A program made the position numbers and the translations under genes. 64,000 nt of DNA from a bacterium. GTDB taxonomy: Bacteria; Bacteroidota; Ignavibacteria; UBA10030. The notes beneath the pieces are model-generated. The model made no database searches and had not been told where the DNA came from. It worked only from the letters and a program-made list of their open reading frames with translations. The stretch lies in assembly GCA_043803945.1 (NCBI GenBank), contig JAZDJN010000010.1:1-64000 (forward strand). Direction: 5' to 3'. This document shows positions 329 through 56,249 of this stretch, piece after piece (position 1 is the stretch's first letter; each line of letters opens with the position of its first letter).

Positions 329-1186
329 TTAATCGTTCGGTCCATACTCCTGAACCTGGCCCCGTTGGTGTTGATATAACGGCGAATCGATATTGGAGAA
401 GCGGCGTAAATATTCTTCACCTGAGATGCTGTTTCTCCAATGGCCAGTGAGCATTGCAAGCCCGGTAATAGCAATGAATACACCGGCTGTTAGTAAGCCG
501 AAAATCCAAGAAGGAACCGGTTTCTCACCCTGTTTTGTCCGAAGCTCCAGTGTGTTTTTCACCAGGCAGACTTCTATGCAACTGTAACACGCCGTGCACT
601 CATCACTCCACACTCGGTTGACTGCATGGATTTTAATATTTGTCGGACACATCTTCGTACACAATTGACAATCCGTGCATGTCTCTTTCCGTCGTGTGAT
701 CTTTAAGGGGCTGAAGAAACTGAACACTCCAAGTAATGCACCATAGGGACAAAGATACCGACACCAGAAATTTTTAATGACGACCGACAGCAAGATAAGA
801 ATGAGTATCGTCCATAATGCAAATGAACTGATTTCGGCAAAGAACAGATACATCTTGACATCTGCCATTTTATTGTATGGACTATAAAGGAATGCTGCTA
901 AACTCGGGAGATCCATTGGCCAGATCGAGAATGTGAAAAAGAACAACAGGAGATATTTCAGCGATCGCAACGGGTAATCAAGCCACCGGTTGACAATGAG
1001 GTTTTTCTTGAAGAGTTTTTGACCGAACATCCAGAGCGACTCGCTCAAGGTGCCCACCGGACAAAGCCAGCTGCAGAATGCTTTCTTCAAGAAGAATCCG
1101 GTTGCCAGAATCGCAATAAAAATGAATATAGTGTAAAAAAAATCATCGTAATGAACGATACTCAGGTTTGCGCATCTCCTGAGCAA
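329..1186 (-). CDS. Membrane 4Fe-4S binding protein (NapH/MauN-like), apparently 5'-truncated
   Basis: FCSWLCPVG and WCRYLCPYG motifs plus two CxxCxxCxxxC clusters and transmembrane helices. The annotated TTG start lies inside the Rrf2 gene and the usual N-terminal segment seems absent. Confidence 0.75.
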   Translation of the reverse strand: MLRRCANLSIVHYDDFFYTIFIFIAILATGFFLKKAFCSWLCPVGTLSESLWMFGQKLFKKNLIVNRWLDYPLRSLKYLLLFFFTFSIWPMDLPSLAAFLYSPYNKMADVKMYLFFAEISSFALWTILILILLSVVIKNFWCRYLCPYGALLGVFSFFSPLKITRRKETCTDCQLCTKMCPTNIKIHAVNRVWSDECTACYSCIEVCLVKNTLELRTKQGEKPVPSWIFGLLTAGVFIAITGLAMLTGHWRNSISGEEYLRRFSNIDSPLYQHQRGQVQEYGPND

Positions 1187-1580
1187 CTTCTGCGATATTC
1201 TTATTCACAAGCATTTTATAAATTGATTCACGAATCGCTCCCCAATGTTCGTGGACAGCGCATGGATTCTTTCCTCCACAGTCAGGAAAACCCACCACGC
1301 ACTTAGTAGAAAAATCTATACCATCAATAGCCTCAACGATGTGAAAGAGTGTTATATCTTTCGCCGCCATTCCAAGTGCAAATCCCCCAGTGGGACCTTT
1401 TAAGGATGAGAGTAAACCCTTACGTGCAAGGTCCTGTAAAATTTTTCCGAGAAAATGATACGGGATCCCAAGTTTCTCAGTCATCTCTTTGATTGAGGTC
1501 ATCTGCCCTTCTGGTTTCAGGGCAAGATAGGACACTGCTTGAAGCGCATATTCACATTGTCTGCTAAAAAGGATACTCAT
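1143..1580 (-). CDS. Rrf2 family transcriptional regulator
   Basis: YALQAV...YHFLGKILQDL...SLKGPTGGF winged-helix signature and C-terminal Cys cluster (CVVGFPDCGGKNPCAVH). Confidence 0.93.
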   Translation of the reverse strand: MSILFSRQCEYALQAVSYLALKPEGQMTSIKEMTEKLGIPYHFLGKILQDLARKGLLSSLKGPTGGFALGMAAKDITLFHIVEAIDGIDFSTKCVVGFPDCGGKNPCAVHEHWGAIRESIYKMLVNKNIAEVAQEMRKPEYRSLR

Positions 1581-1604
1581 CTCATTTCCAGATATCTTTG
1601 TCTT

Positions 1605-1633
1605 AAATTACAATATCGACCTCCATTTGTCAA
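1605..1633 (-). promoter_or_regulatory. sigma70-type promoter of the Rrf2 gene
   Basis: TTGACA-17 bp-TAATTT on the minus strand, about 25 bp before the ATG. Confidence 0.6.
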
Positions 1634-1939
1634 GAAAAATATTCTCCCAATTTCTTCATTCTGGAGAAAGAATCGAAAAGCTCTTTGCATGGATAGGAAA
1701 CTTCAACCTCACTCTCTCCAAAAATTTGAAATCGGCAAATAAAGTCAATAAATACCGTATGAATTCAATGGCGATAATGCAATTCCAAAGGAGAACTCTG
1801 GCATAGGCATTGCCTTTTACCCAATACTAAAGGGATCCCATTTTATCGGTTTTTAGACTTTTTTTTGTACACTTGGTTGGGATGGTGAATCACCCATTCC
1901 CTGTATCTTCTATTATTCTTACATTCTTGAGGAGTTCAT

Positions 1940-3058
1940 ATGGCAAAATATAAAATTGCATGGTTACCCGGCGACGGAATCGGCATCGAGGTACTCGCCG
2001 CGACAAAGATTGTATTGGATAAAATCGGATTAGATGCTGAATACACCCACGGCGATATCGGCTGGGATTTCTGGTGCAAGGAGGGCGACGCTTTCCCGCA
2101 GCGAACAATCGATTTGTTGAAGAATGTCGATGCAGCACTCTTTGGAGCGATCACATCGAAACCCGTGAAAGCTGCTCAATCTGAGTTGATCCCGGAGCTG
2201 CAATCGAAGGGGCTCACCTATCGCTCACCAATCGTCCGAATGCGGCAGCTCTTCGATCTCTATAATTGTCTCCGGCCATGCAAAGCATATCCGGGCAATC
2301 CTCTGAACTTCAAGGAAGGAATTGACCTTGTTGTGTTCCGCGAGAATACAGAAGATCTCTATGCCGGAGTCGAGTTTGCCCCGGTCCCTCAGGAACTCAT
2401 CGATACATTGACCAGGCTCGCCAAACCTTTTGCCCATTTCGCCAAGGTGGCTCCCGATCAGTTCGCTATCTCATGCAAGATAAACACAAAAGCAGGATCA
2501 CTCCGGATCGTCCGCTCTGCATTTGAGTTCGCACGCAAGTTCAGTCGTAAGAAGGTGACAGTCGTGCATAAGGCAAATGTCGTTCGTGCTACCGACGGGC
2601 TCTTTCTTGAAGCGGCAAAAGAAGTCGCCAAGGAGTATCCCGAAATCAAAATGGACGATGCCAACATTGACGCAATGACCATGTGGCTGCTGAAGAATCC
2701 TTTCAACTACGATGTGCTCGTGGCACCGAATTTGTACGGAGATATTATTTCCGACCTCTGTGCACAGATGGTCGGCGGTCTTGGATTCGGATGTTCCGGG
2801 AACATTGGAGAGAAGCTTGCGGTGTTCGAACCGACCCATGGTTCAGCTCCGAAATATTACGGCATGAACAAGTGCAATCCTCTCGCCACCATCCTTGCGG
2901 CCAAGATGATGTTAGATTGGCTGGGGGAGACTGACAAAGGTGTAGCACTCGAAAAAGCAGTGGCCGAGGTAATCAAAGAAGGAATAGTTCGAACGTATGA
3001 CATGGGCGGATCGAACTCCACGACAGAAATGGCAGTGGAAGTAACTCAGAAACTGTAA
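1940..3058 (+). CDS. Isocitrate/isopropylmalate dehydrogenase family, homoisocitrate-dehydrogenase-like
   Basis: LPGDGIGIEV, FRENTEDLY, HKANV, PNLYGDIISD and FEPTHGSAP motifs; specificity segment YRSPIVRMR. Confidence 0.9.
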   Translation: MAKYKIAWLPGDGIGIEVLAATKIVLDKIGLDAEYTHGDIGWDFWCKEGDAFPQRTIDLLKNVDAALFGAITSKPVKAAQSELIPELQSKGLTYRSPIVRMRQLFDLYNCLRPCKAYPGNPLNFKEGIDLVVFRENTEDLYAGVEFAPVPQELIDTLTRLAKPFAHFAKVAPDQFAISCKINTKAGSLRIVRSAFEFARKFSRKKVTVVHKANVVRATDGLFLEAAKEVAKEYPEIKMDDANIDAMTMWLLKNPFNYDVLVAPNLYGDIISDLCAQMVGGLGFGCSGNIGEKLAVFEPTHGSAPKYYGMNKCNPLATILAAKMMLDWLGETDKGVALEKAVAEVIKEGIVRTYDMGGSNSTTEMAVEVTQKL

Positions 3059-3105
3059 GAGTACGAGAATTGAAGATGAGGCTGACCATAAAGTATTTTC
3101 TGGTG

Positions 3106-3254
3106 CGAAGGCGTCCCCGCCAGACTGCATGGCGCCTGTCTGCCAAAGCGGCAGCGCAGGCAGTGGTTGGCTCGCCAAGCATATTAGTTTCGCTCTTTCC
3201 CTCGGCGACCTGCCCGGTATGACTGATCCTATTGAGCAGACGGAGACGCCTTCG
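3106..3254. repeat. Palindromic intergenic element with nested hairpins (REP/MITE-like)
   Basis: 14-bp inverted repeat with one mismatch (CGAAGGCGTCCCCG at 3106, CGGAGACGCCTTCG at 3241) enclosing CAGAC..GTCTG and CTGCC-AAAGC-GGCAG hairpins. Confidence 0.5.
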
Positions 3255-3313
3255 GGTTAGCGTTATATTTTCTTATTAGTCATCCTCCAACGTATAGCTC
3301 TCACTGACAACCT

Positions 3314-4219
3314 ATGAACAACATCATTATTCATGAAGTTGGCCTGCGCGATGGTTTGCAGATGGAAAAGCAGACCGTACCAACCGAACAAAAAATCAAA
3401 TGGGCGGATGCTCTGATATCGGCAGGAGTTGATATTCTCCAGCTCGGATCGTTCGTTCACCCGACGAAGATGCCGCAGATGGCGGACACTGACGAGCTCT
3501 TCAAATACTTCACACAGCAAGGGCGCAAACCGGAACGGGTCACTCTCTCAGGCCTTGTGCTGAATGAAAAAGGACTCGAACGCGGCGAAGCATGCGGCGT
3601 TGAGATGTATTGCATGGGTGTTTCGGCGAGTGAAACCCACAGCCAGAAAAATACCGGCATGTCGACTGCAGAAGCAACGCAACGGATTATTACAGCGGCA
3701 AAGGCGGCACTCTCTGCCGGCAAGCGAGTACAGGTTTCTGTCCAATCGGCTTTTGGCTGCGGATTCGAGGGTGCCATTCCTCACGAACGAGTACTTGGCA
3801 TCATCAGAAATTATCTCGATGTGGGATTGAAGAATATCAGCCTTGCCGACTCCGCAGGTCACGCCCATCCGGAGCAAGTCACGAAATTATTTGCTGCAAT
3901 CTTTTCCCTCGATCCCGCGATCGAAGCGACCTGCCATTTCCATAACACCTATGGATTAGGAATGGCGAACTGCTACGCTGCGATGGATATTGGTGTGAAG
4001 TACTTTGAAACTTCTCTGGCGGGATTAGGAGGATGTCCATTCACGAAAGTAGCCGCTGGTAATGTCTGCACTGAGGATTTCGTCAACGCTCTTCATCGAA
4101 CAGGCAGGAGAAGAGATATCGATCTTTCAAAGCTGATCCTGACCGCGCAAGACCTTGGTGCATTTTTTCAGCGTGATATGCCGGGCCTTGTCCATAAAAC
4201 AGGCGGATTAGGGTACTAA
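3314..4219 (+). CDS. HMG-CoA lyase family (DRE-TIM) acyl-CoA lyase
   Basis: EVGLRDGLQ, LADSAG, HFHNTYGLG and GLGGCPF...GNVCTED motifs. Confidence 0.92.
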   Translation: MNNIIIHEVGLRDGLQMEKQTVPTEQKIKWADALISAGVDILQLGSFVHPTKMPQMADTDELFKYFTQQGRKPERVTLSGLVLNEKGLERGEACGVEMYCMGVSASETHSQKNTGMSTAEATQRIITAAKAALSAGKRVQVSVQSAFGCGFEGAIPHERVLGIIRNYLDVGLKNISLADSAGHAHPEQVTKLFAAIFSLDPAIEATCHFHNTYGLGMANCYAAMDIGVKYFETSLAGLGGCPFTKVAAGNVCTEDFVNALHRTGRRRDIDLSKLILTAQDLGAFFQRDMPGLVHKTGGLGY

Positions 4220-4237
4220 TGTTTTTTCTTATCTATT

Positions 4238-4329
4238 GAGCCACAGAGGCACTGAGCACACAGAGAAGAAATTTCTAAAGACTAATTTCACTATTATGCT
4301 CTGCGTTCTCTTTGTCTCAGTGTCAACTC
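4238..4329. repeat. Imperfect inverted repeat of the CACAGAG type (REP-like)
   Basis: CACAGAGGCACTGAGCACACAGAG pairs imperfectly with CTCTGCGTTCTCTTTGTCTCAGTG around an AT-rich spacer. Confidence 0.5.
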
Positions 4330-4396
4330 CAATGTATGCTGAGCTATAAAATTTTTCATTTTTAGCTTTTAATTTTTAATTGACCATAGGTATCAT

Positions 4397-5590
4397 ATGA
4401 AGCTCTTAGAAGGTATTCGTGTTCTTGACCTGACCAATGTGTTGTCGGGTCCATTTGCAACGTTGCATCTGGCGCTGGCCGGAGCAGAGGTTATCAAGAT
4501 CGAAAATCCCACCGACGGCGATCTTGCCAGGAAACTTGGCTGCGTACCGAAGTACAATCAGATGCTGATGGGGACCAGTTTTCTTGCACAGAATGCAAAC
4601 AAGAAATCTCTCACCTTGAATCTTAAAGCCCCGGAGGGGAAAGAAATTTTCAAGAAACTCGTGAAGACAGCAGATGTCGTGGTTGAAAATTTCCGGCCTG
4701 ATGTCATGACTCGCCTTGGTCTCTCCTATAAAGTTCTTAGCGAGATCAATCCAAAGATCATCTATTGTGCAATTTCAGGATTTGGCCAAACAGGTCCGGA
4801 TGCACTCAAACCTGCCTACGATCAAATTATTCAAGGATTAAGCGGAGAGATGGCAATCAACGGCGATGAGCGATTAAGTCCGCTGCGAGCCGGTTTCCCG
4901 GTGTGCGATACGGTTGGCGGATTAAATGCCGCATTTGCCATTATGGGCGCTCTCTACTATCGGCAGAAAACCGGAGAGGGGCAGTTTATCGATGTCGCAC
5001 TCCTCGATTCCATCATGCCGCTGATGGGCTGGGTCGTCGCAAATCTGATGATTGGCGGCCAGCAGCCGGTGCTGATGGGGAACGATAACTTTACGGCAGC
5101 TCCTTCGGGTGTCTTCAGGACGAAGGATGGATTCATCAACATCGCAGCGAATAAGCAGGATCAGTGGGAATCTGTCGCCGATGTGCTCGGTGTTCCGGAA
5201 TTGAAAACCGATCCGCGCTTCCAGGAACGCGACACGAGGAAAAAGAACCGGAAAGAACTGACACCGCTCCTCGAAGCAACCCTCACCCAGAAAGAGACAG
5301 CAATTTGGGTCGACGAACTGAATACGAAAGATGTGCCAGCCGGCGCTATCCTCTCCCTTAACGCTGCAGTCACACAAGAGCAGGTGAAACACCGGCATGC
5401 CTTCGGTAAAGTGACTGTCGATGGTATCGGGGATCTCGAGCTTTTCAATATGACTGCAAAATTTTCCAAGACACCCGGTGTTGTGGAGGCACCGCCCCCC
5501 AAGCTCAGTCAGCACACCAAAGAAGTATTGACAGGACTGGGATATTCGGAAGAAGAAATTACGAAGTTTAAGGAAGCAAAAATCATTTAA
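4397..5590 (+). CDS. Class III CoA-transferase (CaiB/BaiF family)
   Basis: LEGIRVLDLT..GP, GAEVIKIE, NANKKSLTLNLK, ADVVVENFRP and ISGFGQTGP...AYD motifs. Confidence 0.95.
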   Translation: MKLLEGIRVLDLTNVLSGPFATLHLALAGAEVIKIENPTDGDLARKLGCVPKYNQMLMGTSFLAQNANKKSLTLNLKAPEGKEIFKKLVKTADVVVENFRPDVMTRLGLSYKVLSEINPKIIYCAISGFGQTGPDALKPAYDQIIQGLSGEMAINGDERLSPLRAGFPVCDTVGGLNAAFAIMGALYYRQKTGEGQFIDVALLDSIMPLMGWVVANLMIGGQQPVLMGNDNFTAAPSGVFRTKDGFINIAANKQDQWESVADVLGVPELKTDPRFQERDTRKKNRKELTPLLEATLTQKETAIWVDELNTKDVPAGAILSLNAAVTQEQVKHRHAFGKVTVDGIGDLELFNMTAKFSKTPGVVEAPPPKLSQHTKEVLTGLGYSEEEITKFKEAKII

Positions 5591-5605
5591 CGAAAGGAGA
5601 TTCCA

Positions 5606-6904
5606 ATGGGAATGACTGTTGTTGAGAAAATTCTTGCTCGTGCATCAGGCTTGCCATCGGTGAAAGCAGGCGATGTTGTCGAGCTGAAAGTCGATCTCGC
5701 AATGTCACATGAAAATGCCGCACTCGTGATCAGCCAATTTGACGAGATTTATAAAGGTACGGATCTGCCTGCAGTAATTTGGGACACTTCAAGAATCAGT
5801 ATCATTTTTGATCATCGTGTCCCGGCCGAATCACCGAAAACTGCATCGAATCAAAAAAAGATTCGAGACTATGTCGGTGCACAGGGCATCGCGAAGTTTC
5901 ATGACATTCGCGGCGATGTTGGCGGCATCTGTCATCAGATCCTTCCGGAGAATGGATATGTGAGGCCGGGCTTTGTCGTGGTCGGAACCGATTCACATAC
6001 AACAAGCCATGGTGCTCTTGGTGCATTCGCGTTTGGTATTGGAGCAACCGAAATGGCAAGTGTCTGGGCGCTTGGCAGCGTGATGAATGTCGAAGTGCCG
6101 GCAACCATTAAAGTTGTTGTCAAAGGAACGTTTAAAAAATTTGTCGGGCCCAAAGATTTGATCCTCCACCTCGTCGGTACGCTCACGGCGGAAGGAGCGA
6201 ATTTTAAAGTCATCGAATTCCACGGCCCCGCCATCAAGAAAATGTCGACATCCGGTCGTCTCGTCATCTGTAATATGACGGTTGAAGCAGGAGCCACCTC
6301 CGGCATCGTGCCCGCTGATGAAGAGACAGTACGGTATCTCAAGAAGGAAGCAGGCGTGAAAGCAAAGCTGACATTGGTTAAACCTGATAAAGATGCCGGC
6401 TATGAACAGGTGATAACCATTGATGTTTCAAAACTCACGCCTCAGATTGCATGCCCTCATACAGTGGACAATGTGAAGCCGATCAAGGAAGTTGTCGATA
6501 CAAAGATCAACCAGATCGTTATCGGATCCTGCACGAATGGCCGACTGGATGACCTTGAAATAGCTGCGAAAATATTGAGGGGAAAAAAAGTTGCAAAAGG
6601 AACGCGCATGCTTGTCTTCCCGGCATCAGGCCGTATTTATAATAAAGCCCTGGCAAAAGGGTATATCGGCGAGTTTATGAAAGCCGGTGCCGTGGTAATG
6701 AATCCCGGCTGCGGACCGTGTCTTGGAGTTCATGAGGGTGCTTTGGGTGACGGCGAGGTTGCTCTCTCCACCACCAATAGAAACTTCAAAGGCCGCATGG
6801 GTAATCCGAATTCCGAAGTGTACCTCTGCTCTCCTGCTGTTGCAGCGGCATCGGCGATTACAGGAGTTATTACAGATCCAACGAAGATGAAAGGAGGAAA
6901 GTAA
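5606..6904 (+). CDS. 3-isopropylmalate dehydratase / homoaconitase large subunit
   Basis: DHRVP, GICHQ, GTDSHT, GSCTNGR, NPGCGPCLG (three 4Fe-4S cysteines) and STTNRNFKGRMG. Confidence 0.93.
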   Translation: MGMTVVEKILARASGLPSVKAGDVVELKVDLAMSHENAALVISQFDEIYKGTDLPAVIWDTSRISIIFDHRVPAESPKTASNQKKIRDYVGAQGIAKFHDIRGDVGGICHQILPENGYVRPGFVVVGTDSHTTSHGALGAFAFGIGATEMASVWALGSVMNVEVPATIKVVVKGTFKKFVGPKDLILHLVGTLTAEGANFKVIEFHGPAIKKMSTSGRLVICNMTVEAGATSGIVPADEETVRYLKKEAGVKAKLTLVKPDKDAGYEQVITIDVSKLTPQIACPHTVDNVKPIKEVVDTKINQIVIGSCTNGRLDDLEIAAKILRGKKVAKGTRMLVFPASGRIYNKALAKGYIGEFMKAGAVVMNPGCGPCLGVHEGALGDGEVALSTTNRNFKGRMGNPNSEVYLCSPAVAAASAITGVITDPTKMKGGK

Positions 6905-6908
6905 GAGT

Positions 6909-7415
6909 ATGGCAAAGGTCGTCTATAAACTTGGCGCTGATATCTCCACCGATATCATTTATCCCGGCCGGTATATGGCTACAGTGCTTCCGACGGAAAC
7001 TCCACAATTCGCATTTGTCGACATCAAAGAATTGAACGAGAAGCTGAAAGCTAAACAAATTCCGCCTGGCAGTGTAATCGTTGCCGGAAAGAATTTCGGC
7101 TGCGGATCTTCACGCGAGCAGGCAGTCTCTGCTCTGAAAGGGTATGAGCTGATTATTGTCGCTCCGAACTTCGCGCGGATCTTTTTACAGAACGGCATCA
7201 ACCTCGGGCTCCGGACAGTCTCGTGCCCCGGTATCGAAGCGAATGAAGGGGATGAACTTGACGTGACGGAGACTGAAGTAATCAATAAGACATCCGGTAA
7301 GACCTTCCACATCGAGCCGCTGCCGAAAGCCCGGCAGGCAATTGTGGAAGCCGGCGGATTGATTGCTTACACACGGAAGCGAGTGATTGAAAAAGCTGGC
7401 AAAGCCGCTTCGTAG
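6909..7415 (+). CDS. 3-isopropylmalate dehydratase / homoaconitase small subunit
   Basis: DISTDIIYPGRY, AGKNFGCGSSREQA and FARIFLQNGINLGL motifs. Confidence 0.93.
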   Translation: MAKVVYKLGADISTDIIYPGRYMATVLPTETPQFAFVDIKELNEKLKAKQIPPGSVIVAGKNFGCGSSREQAVSALKGYELIIVAPNFARIFLQNGINLGLRTVSCPGIEANEGDELDVTETEVINKTSGKTFHIEPLPKARQAIVEAGGLIAYTRKRVIEKAGKAAS

Positions 7416-7536: not shown

Positions 7537-7850
7537 TCATTTCACTAGCATCATTGCTTTGCGGGCGATTTGTTTAGTACCGGAGTTCTCGGTTGTTGTG
7601 AGCACATAGATGTACGCCCCACTGGCATAGCGCGAGGCATCGAACGTCTCCTTGAAATACCCTGCCGCCTTCTCCGCATCCACCAGCGTTGTTACCTGCT
7701 GACCAAGCATGTTGAAGATTCTCAGATTGATGTGTGCTTCTTTCGGCAACTGATACGCAATGGTCGTTGACGGGTTGAACGGATTCGGATAGTTCTGGAA
7801 CAGCTCAAACGTCTCCGGCGGCGAGACCTTTATCGCAATCTCCTTCTCCC
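7537..7850 (-). repeat. Copy 1 of a ~310-bp near-identical T9SS-CTD coding segment (copy 2 at 12607-12920)
   Basis: Long identical runs such as TCTCCGCATCCACCAGCGTTGTTACCTGCTGACCAAGCATGTTGAAGATTCTCAGATTGATGTGTGCTTCTTTCG occur in both copies. Confidence 0.95.
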
Positions 7851-8172
7851 ATCGGTTGCCATCTTTCGAGGTGATGACAAACTTCAGCTTTGTGTCGCTC
7901 CCCACCGGCGCTGAGTTGTCCAGAGAGAAACTGAACGTGACGGGCAGCTCCTGCTTTCCTTTTAGCAGCGCTAAAACTTGTTTCTGTTGTGTATAGCTTA
8001 CCCAGGCTGGCACATCGACCACCTCGATCGATATCGCTGTGAGTGCTTCGGAAGAGGAGTTGCTGATTGTTAACTCGATAGTATTCCCTTTCGAGGCAAA
8101 GGGGATGGTATAGATCTGCTGTGCGGTGGTGACGGTTGCCAGCAGAAGCAAGAGCAAAAGTGTTTTAGGCAT
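7537..8172 (-). CDS. Small secreted protein: one Ig-like domain plus T9SS type A C-terminal sorting domain (cassette A, gene 3)
   Basis: Signal peptide MPKTLLLLLLLATVTTA|Q with AGGAG upstream; C-terminus FELFQNYPNPFNPSTTI...SGAYIYVL...KAMMLVK. Confidence 0.88.
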   Translation of the reverse strand: MPKTLLLLLLLATVTTAQQIYTIPFASKGNTIELTISNSSSEALTAISIEVVDVPAWVSYTQQKQVLALLKGKQELPVTFSFSLDNSAPVGSDTKLKFVITSKDGNRWEKEIAIKVSPPETFELFQNYPNPFNPSTTIAYQLPKEAHINLRIFNMLGQQVTTLVDAEKAAGYFKETFDASRYASGAYIYVLTTTENSGTKQIARKAMMLVK

Positions 8173-8214
8173 GTCGTTTTCTCCCTTGACTATCATCATT
8201 CTCTGAGCTGAGTT

Positions 8215-9546
8215 CTACTTCACCTTGTTTGCAGAGGGTAGTTGTCGTAGTACATAGTCTATAACGGGTATCAAAATGTCATATCCCTCTTTTGTGAGAA
8301 AGCGTTTCGGATTGGCGGGGGTCTTCTTATACTCTGTCAGCAGTTTCTCTTTCACCTGTGTCAGTTCTTTGGCACAATTCACCGAGTCGTTCCGGACGAG
8401 GTGTTTTTTTGCATTCTCCAATCCGTTATCCAGTTCATTCACAAAGTTCTTGTCACCCAGCGGGCCATTGGCAGCGCAGCGATGTTTGGCGGCGATGAGG
8501 GTATCTAGCAGAACGCTTACCTTAAGTTGAAGTATCGGGAAGGTGAGAATATTGGATGTATCGCTGCCGGTGACAACGGCAACTTGAGCCGTTCCTGCAA
8601 CAGCAACATCAGCGGCAAGGATGGTGGCCTGCAAGACACTATCGGAAATGCATATTGTTGTCCGTGCCGATTGGTTCCATATGATCGTGGAGCGACTCGA
8701 AAAGTTCTTTCCATTGACAGTAAGAGTAAACGCTCCATTGTTCGAAAGCCAATATAAAGGATTCAAAGAATTGATGCTTGGCACCATATCTTTCGGTAGC
8801 TCGATAATAAGCTGTTCGACATCTTTCTTCAACAACTCAAAAGCCTTCCCGGAGATGTTTGTGACACTGTCGCTCCGGAGTTCAGTAAGAGCACTGGTCA
8901 GGCTTGATCGTGCAGCGATGTAATCTTGAGATTGGATTTGTTGACCTAAGTCCGTGAAGAGATTGATATATTTATCAGCGATGGACTGAGTATATATCCA
9001 ATTCATTTTTCGCATAACGGCAACATCCTGGATGAGACTTCTTGCCGAGACGAGTTTCCTAAAACTATTTGGTGCATTCGGATCGCTGTGGAAAATAAAT
9101 TCGAAGGTGATAGTGCTGTCTTTTTCTATCGGAATTGTATTTAGCTCGTAATCTATAGCTCTCTCTGAGAAATCGGTGTATACACCGATGCAAAGATGAA
9201 AAGTATCTCTCTTAGCACCATATAAATGAATCAAGAACTTTCCTTCATTCTCAAGTGAATAGAAGTAGTATGCAAACTCCATCCAATAATCTGGCTCAAC
9301 GGCTGGATCTACACTTCCATAACTTTGAAAAGAAGCATATGAGGCATTAGGAATCTCGTCATAACGTTTCCATTTGGTTGAATCGGGCTCGCCTCGCGGG
9401 TCTGCTCCACACCTGTTTCCAATAGAATCAGTAAATACAAAACTAACTGACGTAGAGGTGGTGGCACCCATAAGTACTTGATTCTGAGCTGTTGCACAAG
9501 ATAAGAGAATAGTAATTTGAACAAACAGCAGGATGATGTTTCGCAT
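8215..9546 (-). CDS. Secreted protein with IPT/TIG-like domain and FIMAH-like helical modules (cassette A, gene 2; putative partner/immunity)
   Basis: Signal peptide; PSINSLNP...FTLTVNGKNF IPT-like segment; C-terminus LDTLIAAKH...LENAKKHL...LTKEGYDIL aligns with the C-terminus of 13424..14797. Confidence 0.7.
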   Translation of the reverse strand: MRNIILLFVQITILLSCATAQNQVLMGATTSTSVSFVFTDSIGNRCGADPRGEPDSTKWKRYDEIPNASYASFQSYGSVDPAVEPDYWMEFAYYFYSLENEGKFLIHLYGAKRDTFHLCIGVYTDFSERAIDYELNTIPIEKDSTITFEFIFHSDPNAPNSFRKLVSARSLIQDVAVMRKMNWIYTQSIADKYINLFTDLGQQIQSQDYIAARSSLTSALTELRSDSVTNISGKAFELLKKDVEQLIIELPKDMVPSINSLNPLYWLSNNGAFTLTVNGKNFSSRSTIIWNQSARTTICISDSVLQATILAADVAVAGTAQVAVVTGSDTSNILTFPILQLKVSVLLDTLIAAKHRCAANGPLGDKNFVNELDNGLENAKKHLVRNDSVNCAKELTQVKEKLLTEYKKTPANPKRFLTKEGYDILIPVIDYVLRQLPSANKVK

Positions 9547-9563
9547 TGTTCACCTCTATTTTT

Positions 9564-12410
9564 TCAATTTCCTTTTGTAATAATTTGTACATAAGAATAA
9601 AATATATTTCGATACTGACTTAATGTGCTACTTTCTGTATATGAAGGATCTATAATTCTATATTCTCCGCTTGTGGTTTTTGAAGTTACGATAACCCAAT
9701 GGCTACGATCGGATTTTTCATTCCATACTGATACTATGACTGGCCCTTTTATCAATGCTTGGTCTAATTTTGAGTGTGACGTAGATGGCGTATTTTTTGT
9801 ATAGCCATCTAATGTATTCGGTACAATCACGATGCCCCTACTTGATTTTCTAAAATAATCTTTCATACGCCACCAAAGAAGAGCAGCATAATCAAAACAT
9901 TTATTTTCAGGAGCTTTAAAAATGATATTCAATTCTCTGGGATTTGTGTTAAATCCAAGTGCATTCAACACCATTGCCACACAAGTCAATGCACACCCTT
10001 TAGAACCAATAGTAGTGCCCTTGGAATATCCTAGCGTATCAATATTCCAAGATGTGTCTGTTTGTCGAAAATATTTTGCCAGGCTATTCGGATTGTTCAC
10101 TAGAACGGCTCCTTGCGCTAAAATGTTTTCCCCTCCTGAAACCATTACGCCTATACCCACAGGCCATAGCGGAGGGACAGTTCCATCGGCAACAAATTTT
10201 ATTTTTCCCGCACTAATATTTTGAAATGGAACGCCCGAGAATGTCTTTCCACTTCCTCCATCACCGTTGGTCAGGTTTCCATATTCCTGGTCGTCGGGTA
10301 ATATTCCAATGGCGAATGTTTCAATTTTACTGGGTGTTATAGTTTTCTTCTTTTGATATGCAGAAACACTAAGTGTGGAGGATTCACTCGTTTGTATTTC
10401 TTGAGGATTCCAACGAACAGATAAAGAATCAAATTTATTGTTTTGTATCACCACACTGCCGCTCGGCACGGGGCAGTCATTCATCAGCAGACGCTGCTGG
10501 ATAGCTTGGGCAAGGCGCATGGCACGCGAGCTGCTTTGTGCTGCTTGCTTCGATAAGCCTTTTCCTCCTGTCTGATGTTTCACGGCTATCCCTGCTTCAC
10601 CGCCTCCCGCTATCGCCTCAACCACAATCCCTACGCTTATCGAATCCACACTGAGTGTGTCGGCGGCTATAAAATATACCGGTTGTGTGACAGAGTACAA
10701 CTCCGTCCCCTCTGTCATCCCTGCCATACCATTTCCCCGTAGCTTGCCATACTCGCTATTCGTTATCAGCCATACATTGAACAGTTGATCGGCTGCATAT
10801 TCCTCTAACGTCCCGCCATCCTTTAGTTTTTTGAACGATAACCTCGTTGTATCACCGGGGGAGAGTCTGGATCGCTCAAAATCTATTCGAGCACATTCCA
10901 CCTTCTTTATTACTGTTACCCTCGCAATCCCATACTCAATTTCTTGCTCCCCTGAACCGTCACCCTTCACTACCGCAATGTAAATACACACTTCGACACT
11001 ATCGGGCATCGGTATCTCTTCCTCTGCCTGAAACCAGACCTGTGGTGAAAAACCCGTGATCCTATCTCCCGTTGAAGAACCATCCATTGCAGTCAAATGA
11101 CCGGCGTCATAATTTTTCGCTATAGCAAACATAATCATGCAATCTTGCGGAACTGGAACAATTTCACCTCCCGGTAACCTTTGCTTCACATCAAGAAGTG
11201 ATCGCTCACCGAATGTTATCTTGCCTGGATCCACGGTGATTGCCAAAGTATTGGGGACGATAGAGACGCTCATCGTGTCTGGAAGGATTTCTGCACTCGA
11301 TGAGCTGACACAGATCGTGACCTCTTCCCCGCCTCCCATTGGCTCCCTGCCCGTTGCTTCTAATAGAACTCTTGCACTTCCCTCGATCGATGGCTCAATA
11401 TTTTCAAGTACGTTTCCCCCTCCCTGGTGTGTGGCAGAGTATAACCCCACCAGGTCGCCGCCCTGAATCACCTCAAATCTATACTTCTCACCCGGTGGCA
11501 GTGCAACAGGATCACCGTCAAGATACGCTTGAGCCATGATCTGTTCGCTCTCTCCATGCACTATCAACATTGGTTCCATGGTGAGTTTGAGTTTAGGCTT
11601 TGGAAACACCGGCGGTACAATTTGAAATTGATTTATCGCAACCAGACTGTTAATCTCAGCAGAAACAACAACCGTAGCACTCGAACCGGCGCCTATACTA
11701 TCCACCGCAATAAATTTTACTCCACTGATATCACCCAATAATTTCGATACTGTATAGCCAAGAGGAGATCCGGTATCGGAATAGAATTGTCCGTACTCTC
11801 GTCCATCGATAATCGTCAACGTGACGGGGTCATGTGCCACATCGAATGGAATACCCGAACATCCCACGGCAGGATATACCGAAAAGGAATTTTCTCCCGA
11901 AGGTGAAATAGTCGTCCTTCCAATATCCAGCCCGACCCGATAGATAGACGGCAATGTATATCCATCCAGTCGCACGATCGACATAGGAGGACTACCCCAA
12001 CCATAGTATGGAGGAATAGTAACCGTTGTATCATGGTCGGAACTGCCCGGAGCAATTACTTTGACATTGACAACCGCCGAGGTTGGCCAGCCGTAGTGGA
12101 AAATACGTAACTCATAATCTCCGTTAGAGGTGTATGACACCTCATAAACACGATACGTATCTCCAGATCCAACTTCTGTATATGCTCCGCTACAATCGCA
12201 AAATGCCCAAAAGCCTATAGGTGTGCCAGCCGAGAATTCCAAACGCACAGTGAGAACGTTGGTAGTCGTGGTGGTCATGATAGCCGCGGCTGCCTGAGGC
12301 TTCGGGCTCAGGATAACCTTTTCGCGAATCTTCACCTGGGTAGTAAGCTGGGATAGGAACGTTAAAATGGAAAGCGTTACTAGAAAGAGAATCAAGTAGA
12401 TGTTCTTCAT
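9564..12410 (-). CDS. Large secreted multi-module protein with C-terminal C39-like (papain-fold) peptidase (cassette A, gene 1)
   Basis: Signal peptide; about five repeated beta-rich modules; tip YFRQTD..W...IGSKGCALTCVAMVL...SHWVIVT...IIDP (Gln/Cys/His/Asp pattern of Peptidase_C39-like domains). Confidence 0.8.
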   Translation of the reverse strand: MKNIYLILFLVTLSILTFLSQLTTQVKIREKVILSPKPQAAAAIMTTTTTNVLTVRLEFSAGTPIGFWAFCDCSGAYTEVGSGDTYRVYEVSYTSNGDYELRIFHYGWPTSAVVNVKVIAPGSSDHDTTVTIPPYYGWGSPPMSIVRLDGYTLPSIYRVGLDIGRTTISPSGENSFSVYPAVGCSGIPFDVAHDPVTLTIIDGREYGQFYSDTGSPLGYTVSKLLGDISGVKFIAVDSIGAGSSATVVVSAEINSLVAINQFQIVPPVFPKPKLKLTMEPMLIVHGESEQIMAQAYLDGDPVALPPGEKYRFEVIQGGDLVGLYSATHQGGGNVLENIEPSIEGSARVLLEATGREPMGGGEEVTICVSSSSAEILPDTMSVSIVPNTLAITVDPGKITFGERSLLDVKQRLPGGEIVPVPQDCMIMFAIAKNYDAGHLTAMDGSSTGDRITGFSPQVWFQAEEEIPMPDSVEVCIYIAVVKGDGSGEQEIEYGIARVTVIKKVECARIDFERSRLSPGDTTRLSFKKLKDGGTLEEYAADQLFNVWLITNSEYGKLRGNGMAGMTEGTELYSVTQPVYFIAADTLSVDSISVGIVVEAIAGGGEAGIAVKHQTGGKGLSKQAAQSSSRAMRLAQAIQQRLLMNDCPVPSGSVVIQNNKFDSLSVRWNPQEIQTSESSTLSVSAYQKKKTITPSKIETFAIGILPDDQEYGNLTNGDGGSGKTFSGVPFQNISAGKIKFVADGTVPPLWPVGIGVMVSGGENILAQGAVLVNNPNSLAKYFRQTDTSWNIDTLGYSKGTTIGSKGCALTCVAMVLNALGFNTNPRELNIIFKAPENKCFDYAALLWWRMKDYFRKSSRGIVIVPNTLDGYTKNTPSTSHSKLDQALIKGPVIVSVWNEKSDRSHWVIVTSKTTSGEYRIIDPSYTESSTLSQYRNIFYSYVQIITKGN

Positions 12411-12498
12411 GCGAGACCTCCCGAAGGTCTACGGTGATGAGTGGATGGGTTAAACGTTACGGTGCAAGTATACCTTTTTTTTTTACGATAAACGCAAG
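12403..12498 (-). promoter_or_regulatory. Cassette A leader: TTGCGT-19 bp (A10 tract)-TATACT promoter and hairpin covering the SD; duplicated at 17278-17373
   Basis: -35 at 12492-12497, -10 at 12467-12472, T10 at 12475-12484; AGACCT-TCGGG-AGGTCT hairpin (12414-12430) contains GGAGGT just before the ATG. Confidence 0.7.
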
Positions 12499-12606
12499 AG
12501 ATGGAATAATTAATTTTCGATTGCAGGTAAAACGAAATCGATCCCGGCTTTCGCTGAGACCATCTACCATTTTCCCCTCCACAAATTCACACAATAAAAA
12601 ATTCAG

Positions 12607-13410
12607 TCATTTCACCAGCATCATCGCCTTGCGGGCAATTTGTTTGGAGCCGGAGTTCTCAGTTGTTGTGAGAACATACACATACGCCCCGCTTGCATAG
12701 TGCGAAGCATCGAACGTCTCCTTGAAATATCCCGCCAGCCTCTCCGCATCCACCAGCGTTGTTACCTGCTGACCAAGCATGTTGAAGATTCTCAGATTGA
12801 TGTGTGCTTCTTTCGACAACTGATACGCAATGGTCGTTGACGGGTTGAACGGATTCGGATAGTTCTGGAACAACTCAAATGTCTCCGGCGGCGAGACTTT
12901 AATTGCAATCTCTTTCTCCCATTGACTCCCTTCGTTTGTTGTGATGGTGAATTTCAGTTTCGTTTCACTCGCTACCGCTGCCGACTTATCGACAGCGAAT
13001 ATTACTGAAACCGATAATTCTTGATGCGGTTTGAGCAAAGCAAGTGTTTGAGATATCGAAGAGCATTTCACCCATTCCGGGTGTTCCGTCATTCGTACTT
13101 CGATGTTTGACATTGCATCCCTGGTTTCATTGACAACCGTTAACTCTATGGTGTTGTCCGATGATCCAAATGGAACCGTATGGACGACAGCTTTTACATT
13201 TTCTGCTGGTTTGGTATTACCTTCAGACAGTTTTTCAGTTCCTTCCCGGGTCATCTCGATTTCAGTTCTCGGGCATCGTCTCTGCTGTTGCCATTGATCA
13301 AAGAATTCTTTCGTTAATATTCGTTTGGGAGCGGAGCCGCCTTGAACGACAGGCTGCTGGCTGTAAGCAAATTGCATTATGAGGAACAATCCGATGATAA
13401 AATTTCGCAT
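12607..13410 (-). CDS. Small secreted protein: Ig-like domain plus T9SS type A sorting domain (cassette B, gene 3)
   Basis: Signal peptide AYS|QQ; paralog of 7537..8172 (PF.S..NTIELT..N; WEKEIAIKVSPPETFELFQNYPNPFNP). Confidence 0.88.
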   Translation of the reverse strand: MRNFIIGLFLIMQFAYSQQPVVQGGSAPKRILTKEFFDQWQQQRRCPRTEIEMTREGTEKLSEGNTKPAENVKAVVHTVPFGSSDNTIELTVVNETRDAMSNIEVRMTEHPEWVKCSSISQTLALLKPHQELSVSVIFAVDKSAAVASETKLKFTITTNEGSQWEKEIAIKVSPPETFELFQNYPNPFNPSTTIAYQLSKEAHINLRIFNMLGQQVTTLVDAERLAGYFKETFDASHYASGAYVYVLTTTENSGSKQIARKAMMLVK

Positions 13411-13423
13411 ACGATATTCCTCC

Positions 13424-14797
13424 CTACAGTTTTGAGATAAGATACTCGGCGTTGTATTTCAACAGGGCGTATGCTTCAGAGGTGATCTGGTTTTCTTGTT
13501 TGTTCAGAGCTTCGACCTCATTCACAAATGCTTCGAGAATATTTCTTGCTGTCTTTGTATTCCCCTTCTGTAGTTGTTGTCTGGCATTCTCGAGTTTTTG
13601 ATCGAGGCTTGTCGTGATTCCCTTGTTTAGAATCCAATCAAGCTCAATAGCCTGGTGTTTATAAGTAATGAGAGTATCAATCCAGTTAATCGGTATAAAT
13701 TGACTAGATGGATCTACGGGGCCGATAGTTTTCCCCTTCACAGAATTATCATAAATATCTTTTGTACTAATTGGACCATTGTTACCTTGTACAAAGAATA
13801 ATTGAATACCTGGTAAGGCATTTGTTGTGAATGAAAAACTAGAGTCAACATCTGATTGTGCCATCAGGTTTTCCCCATCCAGATCTTCCCAAATCAACAA
13901 TGGCTTCTTCTCCGATAAAATAAATTCCCACTTATCCCTCCCTGTCACATTGAATATATTATTCGTTCCTCTTACGAGCACAAAATTCTCAATTCTCTGT
14001 ATACTCTCGGAAGAGTTAATTAGTCTATAGGAAAATTGAAAAGAATCTTCATACTTCGACACTTTTGATCTGATTGTAACAATTACTTTGTTTTTTGGCA
14101 GTGCGGTAATTTGCGGTGGTACACATCTAGAATACAATTGACCATTCCAACAATATGTAACTGCTACCGTGCTGTCCGAATATAAATTTTCTTGCAACCG
14201 TCCTTGTATTTCTTTTATACCGTCTCCATCCTTGTCGACTATTTCTAAATCGTCGCTAAATGATGCTATCTCTGAATGCCCTTCTGAGTCAAAGGAATTG
14301 AGCAGTTGTCCTACCTGGCCATCCCATCCAGCAATCCAAATATATCTATTTCCCCCTCGTATCCCTTCTTCCCAATAGCAGACAAGCTCTACCTTACCAT
14401 CTCGATTGATATCTGAAACAGTAACATAACCTGCTGTTGCAACATCGAAGCTGTTGATCAATGTATCAAGATGCCAAATGATTTGATTATCCTTAAAGAT
14501 TCCAAAAAATCCCCGTGGATAGCCATCATTCTCCTGAGGTTTCGCCTCTGCTGTAAAAAGATAACAATGATTCAAAGTTCCAAAGGGATTTTCAATAGAG
14601 TATTGAGAGACCCGGTTTCTTCCAATTGCACTATCTACGTTAATCAGATCTGTCACTCTATATTTTTCATCGCCATAAATTGAATTAATGGCTCTGTTTA
14701 TTCTCTCATAATCATTTTGTAACACACCTGGATTCATTTGTGCAATCGCAAGCACAGGGAAAATAATGAGAAAAAGCATAGTTGTTGATTTATTCAT
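13424..14797 (-). CDS. Secreted protein with Ca-binding-like loops and FIMAH-like C-terminal helical module (cassette B, gene 2; putative partner/immunity)
   Basis: Signal peptide AIA|Q; DINRDGKVE and DKDGDGIKE loops; C-terminus IDTLITYKH...SLDQKLENARQQL...LEAFVNEVEA...ITSEAYALL. Confidence 0.7.
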   Translation of the reverse strand: MNKSTTMLFLIIFPVLAIAQMNPGVLQNDYERINRAINSIYGDEKYRVTDLINVDSAIGRNRVSQYSIENPFGTLNHCYLFTAEAKPQENDGYPRGFFGIFKDNQIIWHLDTLINSFDVATAGYVTVSDINRDGKVELVCYWEEGIRGGNRYIWIAGWDGQVGQLLNSFDSEGHSEIASFSDDLEIVDKDGDGIKEIQGRLQENLYSDSTVAVTYCWNGQLYSRCVPPQITALPKNKVIVTIRSKVSKYEDSFQFSYRLINSSESIQRIENFVLVRGTNNIFNVTGRDKWEFILSEKKPLLIWEDLDGENLMAQSDVDSSFSFTTNALPGIQLFFVQGNNGPISTKDIYDNSVKGKTIGPVDPSSQFIPINWIDTLITYKHQAIELDWILNKGITTSLDQKLENARQQLQKGNTKTARNILEAFVNEVEALNKQENQITSEAYALLKYNAEYLISKL

Positions 14798-14807
14798 AAG
14801 AACCTCA

Positions 14808-53382: not shown

Positions 53383-53430
53383 ATGCAATTCCTCCAATTC
53401 CTGGGTGAAGGCAAAACGAACACATCATCA

Positions 53431-54540: not shown

Positions 54541-54549
54541 AGGTCGATA

Positions 54550-55176: not shown

Positions 55177-55193
55177 ATACTATGATCGTCTAT

Positions 55194-55880: not shown

Positions 55881-56189
55881 GAGTAATTACCCTTTTCCGA
55901 CGATCCTGAAACTTTGGTTTATTCTATTACCGCTACAGGTAGGATGCCAGCATATCTCTCCACCCAAGCACGAATAGCCGTTGAAAACATTGATTATTAA
56001 TTGATTTTAAAAGGAAAAACCTTTGTGTGTGCATTAAAGCATTATTCTAAAATGTAAATTCTACATTGAGGAAGTGTCGCAGATCGAGAGGTGTTAGTTT
56101 CACTTTACCGGAATAAACGTAATCACTCAGTATGCTATTTGCGATTTTTTTATGAAAGATATTCAATTGATGAATCACCGTTATCTTCT

Positions 56190-56249
56190 GACTCATCCCC
56201 CCATCCCCCTTCTCTATTCTTAGAGAAGGGGGAGAAAGGGGGTTGAGTC
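56190..56249. repeat. Palindromic REP-like element
   Basis: GACTCA-TCCCCCC-ATCCCCCTTCTCT-loop-AGAGAAGGGGGA-GAAAGGGGG-TTGAGTC. Confidence 0.6.

Follow-up and report, generated by a model that had tools for sequence, protein, structure and literature searches.

All 2-oxoacid chain elongations known to us (leucine, citramalate-isoleucine, aminoadipate-lysine and coenzyme B) start with a thioester-hydrolysing synthase and run one way. In the stretch analysed here, 64,000 nucleotides from a bacterium of the Ignavibacteria lineage UBA10030 (contig JAZDJN010000010.1 of assembly GCA_043803945.1, positions 1 to 64,000; hereafter the window), five co-oriented open reading frames (ORFs) on the + strand at 1940-7415 encode a dehydrogenase (B), an acyl-CoA lyase (L), a coenzyme A (CoA)-transferase (T) and the large and small subunits of an isomerase (C and D), and no LeuA/CimA-type synthase was found within this cluster. 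In Chloroflexus aurantiacus, Friedmann and co-workers are said to have described in 2006/2007 a class III CoA-transferase (Sct) and a lyase of about 300 amino acids (aa) belonging to the 3-hydroxy-3-methylglutaryl-CoA (HMG-CoA) lyase family (Ccl), which are encoded side by side and which reportedly activate a 2-substituted malate and cleave it to acetyl-CoA and a 2-oxoacid. To our knowledge, the Sct/Ccl system has no dedicated LeuCD-type isomerase and no dehydrogenase of the isocitrate dehydrogenase (IDH) family. The T and L pair is like Sct and Ccl in enzyme family and side-by-side arrangement; unlike the Chloroflexus pair, L and T are always accompanied by B, C and D.

Other known routes resemble the locus in part. 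With aminoadipate and coenzyme B elongation (homocitrate synthase, HacAB or LysTU, homoisocitrate dehydrogenase [HICDH] or AksF), it has in common a dehydrogenase that is nearest to Thermus HICDH and AksF2 and an isomerase of the archaeal-type HacA/LeuC and HacB/LeuD subfamilies; unlike them, it has a CoA-transferase and a lyase and no synthase, B carries an NADP-type motif (the Asp-Ile form in Thermus HICDH), D lacks the Arg of HacB, and the direction that we propose is reversed. The LeuABCD and CimA-LeuCD-LeuB routes are likewise built from condensation or cleavage, isomerisation and beta-decarboxylating dehydrogenation, but their synthase step is an irreversible hydrolysis, whereas the thioester would be kept here. 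Citrate cleavage in the reductive tricarboxylic acid (TCA) cycle, with citryl-CoA synthetase/citryl-CoA lyase or ATP-citrate lyase, proceeds by carboxylation through NADP-IDH, isomerisation by aconitase, activation as a CoA ester and splitting by a lyase to acetyl-CoA and a 2-oxoacid. The same reaction logic is proposed for this operon, with CoA transfer instead of ATP and an HMG-CoA-lyase-like (HMGL) family lyase instead of one of the citrate-synthase/CitE type. Finally, T is nearest to human SUGCT and L lies near human HMG-CoA lyase with the lyase motifs kept, but the human pair is not connected with enzymes of the LeuCD or IDH type, and going by the chemistry of the aconitase family, 3-hydroxy-3-methylglutarate would not be a plausible substrate of C/D or B because it has no alpha-carboxylate on its hydroxyl carbon. 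In the literature, no description of this gene set or of homocitryl-CoA was found, subscription journals lying mostly outside the search. The five genes, in window coordinates, are listed below.

1940..3058, + strand: B, NADP-type beta-decarboxylating dehydrogenase of the IDH/HICDH/isopropylmalate dehydrogenase (IPMDH) family (372 aa; PF00180 Iso_dh, E 1.6e-86)
3314..4219, + strand: L, HMG-CoA-lyase-family acyl-CoA lyase (301 aa; PF00682 HMGL-like, E 3.1e-42)
4397..5590, + strand: T, class III (CaiB/Frc/SUGCT-type) CoA-transferase (397 aa; PF02515 CoA_transf_3, E 2e-119)
5606..6904, + strand: C, LeuC/HacA-type large subunit of an aconitase-family hydro-lyase (432 aa; PF00330)
6909..7415, + strand: D, LeuD/HacB-type small subunit (168 aa; TIGR02087 LeuD/DmdB)

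Conservation of the five genes as one unit

The five genes are one conserved unit and their clustering is not a matter of chance. A scan with one genome per species returned at least 585 matching stretches and a metagenome scan at least 561, of which the best 80 each were examined; B-L-T-C-D were complete and in this order in 54 of the 80 genome loci and 31 of the 80 metagenome loci, the partial loci (26 and 49, respectively) resulting mostly from contig ends within the cluster, and a different gene order was seen in none of these 80 genome and 80 metagenome loci. The labels of the best 80 genome loci comprise Ignavibacteria/Bacteroidota, Acidobacteriota, Chloroflexota, Verrucomicrobiota, Calditrichota, Aminicenantes, Zixibacteria, Fischerbacteria, and some Proteobacteria and Clostridia; the complete-order genome loci alone span at least eight phylum labels, and the identity of the operon across phyla is 55-90%. 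Closer to the host, L orthologs (62-75% identity) are present in seven of 40 relatives of the same family and order, and six of the seven hold all five genes in the same order, the contig of the seventh ending inside T. L and T are fused as a single reading frame of 697-701 aa in 8 of the 140 loci that hold both, and in one such fusion (L051) both domains were found by Pfam. Where L-T pairs stand isolated with long flanks, C-D orthologs (63-78% identity) are encoded elsewhere in the genome (five of five genomes), and B adjoins the separate C-D in the two cases in which the retrieved stretch reached far enough. An earlier note on this DNA, made from the sequence alone, had described five co-oriented LeuB-, HMG-CoA-lyase-, CaiB-, LeuC- and LeuD-like genes without a synthase, at exactly the coordinates given above; the families and coordinates were borne out, its view that the synthase is replaced by a CoA-transferase and an acyl-CoA lyase holds by families and conservation, and the joint conservation on which it depended is seen in the constant order across phyla, the L-T fusions and the split versions that keep all parts. 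Further fusions are possible: no stop separates B from L, which share a frame, in L065, and the same is seen for C and D in L087 (sequencing errors possible).

The distribution of the operon is patchy: an L ortholog occurs in 22 of the 137 genomes of one Acidobacteriota class, and in a Chloroflexota class sample, drawn from L056 (labelled Chloroflexia) and an Anaerolineales-labelled genome and not shown to include Chloroflexus, the operon was found in the centre genome only (1/151 and 1/201). Together with the 55-90% identity across phyla, this patchiness suggests that the operon may have spread by horizontal transfer.

Within the host genome (5.54 Mb in 118 contigs, 100% complete), the cluster is a paralogous extra set; it is neither a leucine pathway lacking its first enzyme nor needed as a TCA branch, because the host has its own leuA/leuBCD, citrate synthase, AcnA-type aconitase and an IDH that is 71% identical to E. 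coli Icd, besides a further NAD-type paralog. The concern that these could be the only leuBCD of the genome is thus answered by a separate bacterial-type operon on contig C111, consisting of a LeuA-like gene, leuA, leuC, leuD and leuB, the last four of which encode products with 46-56% identity to their E. coli counterparts. The identity of B, C and D to these C111 Leu proteins is no more than 33-36%; compared with E. coli LeuB, B reaches 33% and the C111 LeuB paralog 49%. The only other HMGL-like genes in the genome are two long ORFs (519 and 547 aa), also on C111.

A four-gene variant with a lyase, LeuC-like and LeuD-like proteins and a class III CoA-transferase was seen in two genomes of the Chloroflexota class (L218:7182-11061, - strand, and L220:7397-11338, + strand); its proteins are 40-44% identical to L, C and D, it has no adjoining dehydrogenase, and in L218 it adjoins an Opp/Dpp-type (peptide-type) ABC transporter. 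Moreover, a separate pair of a CoA-transferase and an HMGL-family lyase (L219:8400-10498, - strand; 34-37% identical to T and L) sits beside a Liv-type ABC transporter, at a distance of 17 kb from the four-gene variant in the same genome. Judging from these gene sets, lyase-transferase units and aconitase-family isomerases occur in more than one combination.

Family placement and substrate segments of the enzymes

In a protein cluster look-up, all five proteins were unnamed singletons, and none of them reaches the cut-off of an enzyme-level (equivalog) model of NCBIfam; their placement is given by broader families and solved relatives. L lies above the curated cut-offs of PF00682 (145 bits, cut-off 29) and of the HMG-CoA lyase subfamily NF004283 (261.7 bits, cut-off 246), and its top solved relatives, in the range of 144-196 bits, are the HMG-CoA lyases 6nds (196 bits), 1ydo and human 2cw6 (160 bits). 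The motifs EVGxRDGLQ, HxH, GLGGCP and GN are kept in alignments with 6nds, 1ydo, 2ftp and human 2cw6; the RD of the first, HxH, the Cys of GLGGCP and GN, which we take to be the catalytic and metal motifs of HMG-CoA lyases, are invariant among eight orthologs. The operon context argues for a 2-substituted malyl-CoA, rather than HMG-CoA, as the likely substrate of L. T matches PF02515 over its full length (399 bits, residues 4-374 on profile positions 1-366 of 366); its top NCBIfam match, succinate--glutarate CoA-transferase NF052585, remains below the cut-off (294.7 against 750 bits), and its top solved relative is human succinate--hydroxymethylglutarate CoA-transferase 9br6 (256 bits). The closest characterised relatives of T use C5 dicarboxylates with succinyl-CoA.

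For B, the highest-scoring NCBIfam models are those of homoisocitrate dehydrogenase, led by the methanogen AksF2 (NF040626, 336 against a cut-off of 540 bits) and including AksF (NF040619, 296 against 500); the IDH equivalog (291 against 510) and the leuB equivalog TIGR00169 (202.5 against 353.2) are missed as well. Its top solved relatives are Thermus HICDH 3asj (231 bits) and NAD-IDH 6ltf (228 bits), the solved IPMDHs scoring 144-185 bits. The cofactor motif of B, HGSAPK[YH]xG..K.NP, is E. coli Icd-like and present in 56 of 56 orthologs, whereas in the alignment E. coli LeuB, the host's own LeuB and the host's NAD-type paralog carry the NAD-type HGSAPDIA, and Thermus HICDH (3asj) has the Asp-Ile form. 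Lys344-Tyr345 of E. coli Icd, presumably the NADP-binding pair, are kept in B; the IDH equivalog cut-offs are missed. The segment YRSPIVRMR (residues 94-102 of B) is near-invariant (54 of 56 orthologs); it keeps the Arg-Ser of IDH and adds an invariant Arg100, in contrast to E. coli LeuB, where R-G-A-L-L-P-L-R is hydrophobic throughout. B and E. coli Icd have the Arg-Ser pair, the NADP motif and one insertion in common. Of Ser113 and Asn115 of Icd, which we assume bind the gamma-carboxylate, the former is kept (S96) and the latter is Ile (I98) in all B orthologs, and the Icd mutant N115L (solved entry 1grp) is reported to be nearly inactive; because Asn115 is replaced, isocitrate seems an unlikely substrate of B. 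The likeness of YRSPIVRMR to fungal HICDH that the earlier note had proposed did not hold up, since a 60-residue stretch around it matched IDHs and archaeal IPMDHs best and the one solved fungal HICDH, 3ty3, was absent among the 23 matches at E <= 1.

C and D belong to the archaeal-type LeuC/HacA and LeuD/HacB subfamilies. C exceeds the subfamily cut-offs of TIGR02086 (520.7 bits, cut-off 410) and TIGR01343 (519, cut-off 386) and D that of TIGR02087 LeuD/DmdB (125.9, cut-off 109). Both remain below the equivalogs (homoaconitase NF040615, NF040625 and NF040604; LeuC/LeuD TIGR02083 and TIGR02084), with 489 against 550 for HacA_Meth and 460 against 611 for LEU2 in the case of C, and 112.9 and 103.7 against 230 for homoaconitase and 110 against 246 for isopropylmalate isomerase in the case of D. 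The loop YPGRYMAT of D is near-invariant (57 of 59 orthologs). The specificity loop reads R-Y-M-A-T in D, R-Y-L-V-Y in LeuD, P-Y-L-R-T in HacB (2pkp) and R-Y-N-L-T in the Pyrococcus horikoshii protein. The PGRY of this loop had been taken for a homoaconitase-like feature; it is identical in the P. horikoshii small subunit 1v7l, and Methanocaldococcus jannaschii HacB has PGPY, so that this argument falls away.

Proposed reactions, their direction and their substrate

We infer every reaction, direction and substrate in this section from the sequences. The module would be a 2-oxoacid chain elongation in reverse with the thioester kept. B with NADPH would reductively carboxylate a 2-oxoacid to a 3-substituted malate, C/D would isomerise it to the 2-substituted malate, T would load the latter onto CoA from a donor acyl-CoA, probably succinyl-CoA, and L would split the CoA ester, releasing acetyl-CoA and a 2-oxoacid with one carbon less than the initial 2-oxoacid. 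The net backward conversion would be 2-oxoacid(n+1) + CO2 + NADPH + acyl-CoA to 2-oxoacid(n) + acetyl-CoA + acid. The likeliest pair would be 2-oxoadipate to 2-oxoglutarate, via homoisocitrate, homocitrate and homocitryl-CoA, the module being then the last stage of lysine breakdown via lysine 6-transaminase or lysine 6-dehydrogenase and 2-aminoadipate. We regard the general mechanism, a thioester-keeping 2-oxoacid module of CoA-transferase and lyase whatever its substrate and direction, as probable, and give the full statement, that it runs backward from 2-oxoadipate to 2-oxoglutarate and acetyl-CoA, a probability of roughly 0.4.

The backward direction is favoured because B is NADP-type while its biosynthetic relatives (LeuB, Thermus HICDH) carry the NAD-type motif, which would fit a reductive role like that of the IDH of the reductive TCA cycle. 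It would also fit that a lyase and a CoA-transferase in place of a hydrolysing synthase make cleavage possible without ATP. 2-Oxoadipate is favoured because dedicated B, C and D would be easiest to explain if the host LeuBCD cannot handle the substrate. The nearness of B to HICDH and AksF2, its Arg-Ser and Arg100, and the use of C5 dicarboxylates by the relatives of T speak for a tricarboxylate, and links to lysine point the same way. In L022, B is directly preceded on its own strand by genes for an aldehyde dehydrogenase and an L-lysine 6-transaminase (TIGR03251, 650 bits, cut-off 521), and in two Anaerolineales-type loci (L074, L090) a Sacchrp_dh-family gene lies directly upstream of the operon. 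The top solved relative of the latter protein is 3abi (108 bits), the next two scoring 34 and 28 bits; according to PMC10413350, 3abi is the L-lysine 6-dehydrogenase of P. horikoshii, and 4rl6 and 4ina are probably carboxyspermidine dehydrogenases. Hence two unrelated enzymes predicted to make 2-aminoadipate semialdehyde from lysine adjoin the operon in different phyla. Of 32 operon holders examined, five (G200, G201, G202, G205 and G358) have an ortholog of the lysine-6-dehydrogenase-like protein at 49% identity or more, against 2 of 315 genomes without the operon. The gene is rare: in the Chloroflexota class sample 1 of 200 other genomes has it, in the Acidobacteriota class 2 of 137. The adjacency and the enrichment together point to 2-oxoadipate. 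The host itself encodes a lysine 6-transaminase (C54:142920-144212, 684 bits to TIGR03251) away from the operon, and its three acyl-CoA dehydrogenases all stay below the cut-off of the single glutaryl-CoA dehydrogenase model with a match (not the classical-enzyme model). Lysine 6-transaminase is near-universal in Ignavibacteriales, where 37 of the 41 genomes have it, and common in the Acidobacteriota class (72 of 137 genomes); it is present in none of 14 well-known control genomes.

Several observations weigh against 2-oxoadipate. In the substrate segment of B, Ile98-Val99 align with Leu-Leu of E. coli LeuB, and Arg85 of Thermus HICDH (3asj), in our understanding the residue that recognises the distal carboxylate, aligns with Val99, the Arg of B standing at the next position, 100. 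D is nearer to the small subunit of the M. jannaschii isopropylmalate (IPM)/citramalate isomerase, 3vba (119 bits), than to HacB 2pkp (101 bits), and its loop lacks the Arg of M. jannaschii HacB (Y-L-R-T), the Thr being common to both; this Arg is said, in work of 2010 attributed to Jeyakanthan and co-workers, to recognise the distal carboxylate. The adjacency of lysine genes is rare (3 of 160 loci, with none among the 80 metagenome loci), and the holders counted in 5/32 are partly kin, so that their independence is overstated. Lysine 6-transaminase does not track the operon, being present in 7 of 8 holders against 30 of 33 non-holders in Ignavibacteriales, in 14 of 22 holders against 60 of 115 non-holders in the Acidobacteriota class (the 60 including G336, flagged as unpublished), and in 5 of 15 other operon holders. 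The commonest conserved neighbour is instead a three-subunit VorB-type 2-oxoacid:ferredoxin oxidoreductase (17 of 160 loci). PMC3362086 has such an enzyme of Ignavibacterium album annotated as 2-oxoisovalerate oxidoreductase (VOR), apart from a two-subunit 2-oxoglutarate enzyme. In sum, B and the lysine links point to 2-oxoadipate, and the loop of D and the VorB-type neighbour to uncharged substrates. The earlier proposal of a backward run on 2-oxoadipate and homocitrate retains some support from the NADP motif, the lysine neighbours and the co-occurrence, but has lost its arguments from the SPIV segment and the PGRY loop.

Those signals are read differently by the alternatives, of which a backward citramalate series is the foremost, although we consider it unlikely: 2-oxobutyrate, drawn from threonine, methionine or, via the neighbouring oxidoreductase, propionyl-CoA, would be carboxylated with CO2 and NADPH to 3-methylmalate, isomerised to (R)-citramalate and cleaved as citramalyl-CoA to pyruvate and acetyl-CoA. 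Among the characterised systems known to us, only the (R)-citramalate system of Chloroflexus pairs a class III CoA-transferase with an HMGL-family lyase; the D subunit most like that of the M. jannaschii IPM/citramalate isomerase, its loop without Arg, the hydrophobic Ile98-Val99 of B and the adjacent oxidoreductase, a type that accepts small uncharged 2-oxoacids, would all suit such a substrate. A methyl substituent, however, would leave the invariant Ser96 and Arg100 of B unexpected and would explain neither the lysine genes beside the operon nor the enrichment of the lysine-6-dehydrogenase-like gene; the neighbours of 80 loci included no genes for threonine, methionine, isoleucine or propionate, and dedicated B, C and D are harder to account for in a host with LeuCD and LeuB, enzymes on which the citramalate route relies elsewhere. 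The corresponding leucine series, which ranks behind forward synthesis and appears quite improbable, would carboxylate 2-oxoisocaproate with CO2 and NADPH to 3-isopropylmalate and cleave 2-isopropylmalate via its CoA ester to 2-oxoisovalerate and acetyl-CoA, the neighbouring VorB-type oxidoreductase then converting 2-oxoisovalerate to isobutyryl-CoA. That oxidoreductase falls in the NCBI 3-methyl-2-oxobutanoate dehydrogenase VorB family (alpha subunit 549 bits to NF005507, cut-off 399), but the family names of such oxidoreductases have rarely been tested. The absence of a canonical HMG-CoA lyase from 33 relatives without the operon, by which no classical leucine degradation is evident there, the Ile-Val of B and the loop of D would agree with this series, as would the separate VOR for amino-acid fermentation or synthesis ascribed to I. 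album in PMC3362086. Set against them are the redundancy of dedicated B, C and D with the host LeuBCD, the much greater nearness of B to HICDH and IDH than to the solved IPMDHs, and again the lysine links, which it leaves unexplained.

Forward synthesis, which is improbable and stands next after the citramalate series, would let L condense acetyl-CoA with a 2-oxoacid to an alkylmalyl-CoA and T hand the CoA to another acid, with isomerisation by C/D and oxidative decarboxylation by B giving a longer 2-oxoacid and NADPH; it would save the energy lost to hydrolysis by LeuA-, CimA- or homocitrate-synthase-type enzymes. Each step could in principle be reversed, the gene set mirrors the biosynthetic elongation pathways, and PMC3362086 reports I. 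album to be without genes for branched-chain amino-acid and lysine synthesis and states that its VOR could make 2-oxoacids by carboxylation. Against this, the host has its own leuA/leuBCD and a second LeuA-like gene, biosynthetic LeuB of the host and of E. coli is NAD-type where B is NADP-type in every ortholog, the genes around the operon encode catabolic proteins (peptidases, an amino-acid permease, lysine 6-transaminase, aldehyde dehydrogenase and histidine ammonia-lyase) or redox regulators rather than biosynthetic enzymes, and no amino-acid leader or riboswitch was found upstream with Rfam. A broad-specificity module that shortens several 2-oxoacids (2-oxoadipate, 2-oxoisocaproate, 2-oxobutyrate and others) in peptide-fermenting anaerobes, as a sink for NADPH and an extra source of acetyl-CoA, would account for the mixed signals, HICDH-like overall against a small uncharged Ala in the D loop, and for neighbours that vary by lineage (VorB-type oxidoreductase, lysine genes, peptidases, permease), and R26V variants of HacB reportedly become promiscuous; we think it a poor prospect even beside the leucine series, as the substrate segments of B and D are near-invariant across phyla at 55-90% identity, which one defined substrate fits better. 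Least likely, and very improbable, is an ATP-free citrate cleavage for the reductive TCA arm, with B as NADP-IDH, C/D as aconitase and T/L cleaving citrate via citryl-CoA to acetyl-CoA and oxaloacetate. Citryl-CoA is the closest structural analogue of HMG-CoA, T and L are nearest to human succinate--HMG CoA-transferase and HMG-CoA lyases, and B has the features in common with Icd that are named above, but Asn115 of Icd is Ile in all B orthologs and the host has its own citrate synthase, AcnA and Icd-like IDH. On these grounds, the replacement of citrate cleavage or the TCA cycle was set aside as the main explanation and kept as a minor one.

A wider reading, to which we give little credence, links the VorB-type oxidoreductase with the operon as an ATP-free counterpart of the reductive TCA arm, that is, a new CO2-incorporating and thioester-conserving route. 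An acyl-CoA would be carboxylated twice, with reduced ferredoxin first and then with NADPH, and the product would be isomerised, attached to CoA again by a transfer step and cleaved to acetyl-CoA and a central 2-oxoacid.

Surroundings of the operon and biological meaning

Three further features belong to the immediate surroundings.

1143..1580, - strand: Rrf2-family regulator, divergent from the operon (PF02082, E 2e-29; TIGR00738, 105 bits, cut-off 73)
1581..1939, + strand: upstream spacer of 359 nt, presumed promoter region
3059..3313, no strand assigned: B-L spacer with a dispersed short repeat, outside the pathway (repeat copies elsewhere in the genome)

The Rrf2-family protein is a possible regulator of the operon; its homologs (60-71% identity) flank the operon in three of seven related genomes (L015, L016 and L017) and at further Ignavibacteria-type loci. 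Together with a NapH-like polyferredoxin membrane protein, it occupies the - strand upstream of the operon (329-1580), and this divergent NapH-like/Rrf2 pair recurs upstream of the operon in L026 and L028. In the upstream spacer, no Rfam family was matched at E <= 1, hence neither a riboswitch nor an amino-acid leader, and promoter-like and terminator-like matches were at the same level as in shuffled sequence. The intergenic gaps are 255 nt (B-L), 177 nt (L-T), 15 nt (T-C) and 4 nt (C-D), the first two exceeding those of most relatives (the B-L gaps of orthologs are mostly 9-130 nt). Parts of the B-L spacer, 30-116 nt long, have copies with 74-95% identity on at least 15 further contigs; the repeat is G+C-rich and folds slightly better than its shuffles (z = -2.0), and it looks like a small dispersed element of the repetitive extragenic palindrome (REP) or miniature inverted-repeat transposable element (MITE) kind inserted within the operon.

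Neighbouring genes at other loci vary and include peptidases, an amino-acid permease, amidases and histidine-degradation genes (histidine ammonia-lyase). The neighbouring regulators differ by lineage (Rrf2, ArsR, ArsR-rhodanese, LysR and sigma-54, the non-Rrf2 types in other phyla), and redox- or stress-type neighbours comprise ArsR (directly adjacent at eight loci), ArsR-rhodanese fusions (four), OsmC downstream (three), hemerythrin (two) and Usp (one) (L034, L049, L087, L091, L056, L069, L073, L095, L099, L195, L197, L201; L079, L152, L207; L039, L051; L046). The operon may thus be controlled by redox state or iron-sulfur status, and its predicted neighbours look catabolic and redox-linked, not biosynthetic. 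The VorB-type oxidoreductase adjoins the operon in two arrangements at nine of 80 genome and eight of 80 metagenome loci, some of which may share organisms, and its ortholog in the host (contig C61, 72-82% identity) is not near the operon. A conserved protein of 190-214 aa lies directly upstream of B on the same strand at five loci (L055:1842-2417, L079:5099-5716, L152:2881-3465, L162:4740-5318 and L207:266-907), preceded by the VorB-type oxidoreductase in all but L207; it had no Pfam match in L079, L152 and L207 at E 0.01 and none in L055 at 1e-12.

Downstream of the operon, the - strand of the window carries a run of probable type IX secretion cargo or surface proteins at 7537-17285 (Por_Secre_tail, FIMAH and choice-of-anchor Z repeat), among them a 948-aa protein with a C-terminal C39-like peptidase domain and an 825-aa protein without a family at E 1e-15. 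The remainder of the window (17606-49400 and 52189-64000, both - strand) holds a region of ribosomal protein, SecY, RpoA, EF-Tu, EF-G, RpoC and RpoB genes and, after it, clustered genes for response regulators and large PAS/GAF histidine kinases.

An elongation module that uses a CoA-transferase and a lyase would be reversible and energy-saving. Run backward in a fermenting anaerobe, it would consume NADPH and CO2 and so act as an electron sink, yield extra acetyl-CoA and hence ATP, and return a central 2-oxoacid; if the substrate is 2-oxoadipate, it would be an undescribed end of lysine catabolism that avoids glutaryl-CoA. Should the doubtful coupling to the VorB-type oxidoreductase prove true, many uncultured anaerobes would assimilate or rearrange propionate, glutarate or isovalerate in this manner. 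The enzymes are small, soluble and easily assayed. As the operon occurs in hundreds of uncultured species, models of carbon flow in soil and sediment would be annotating its genes wrongly, as leucine synthesis and HMG-CoA lyase.

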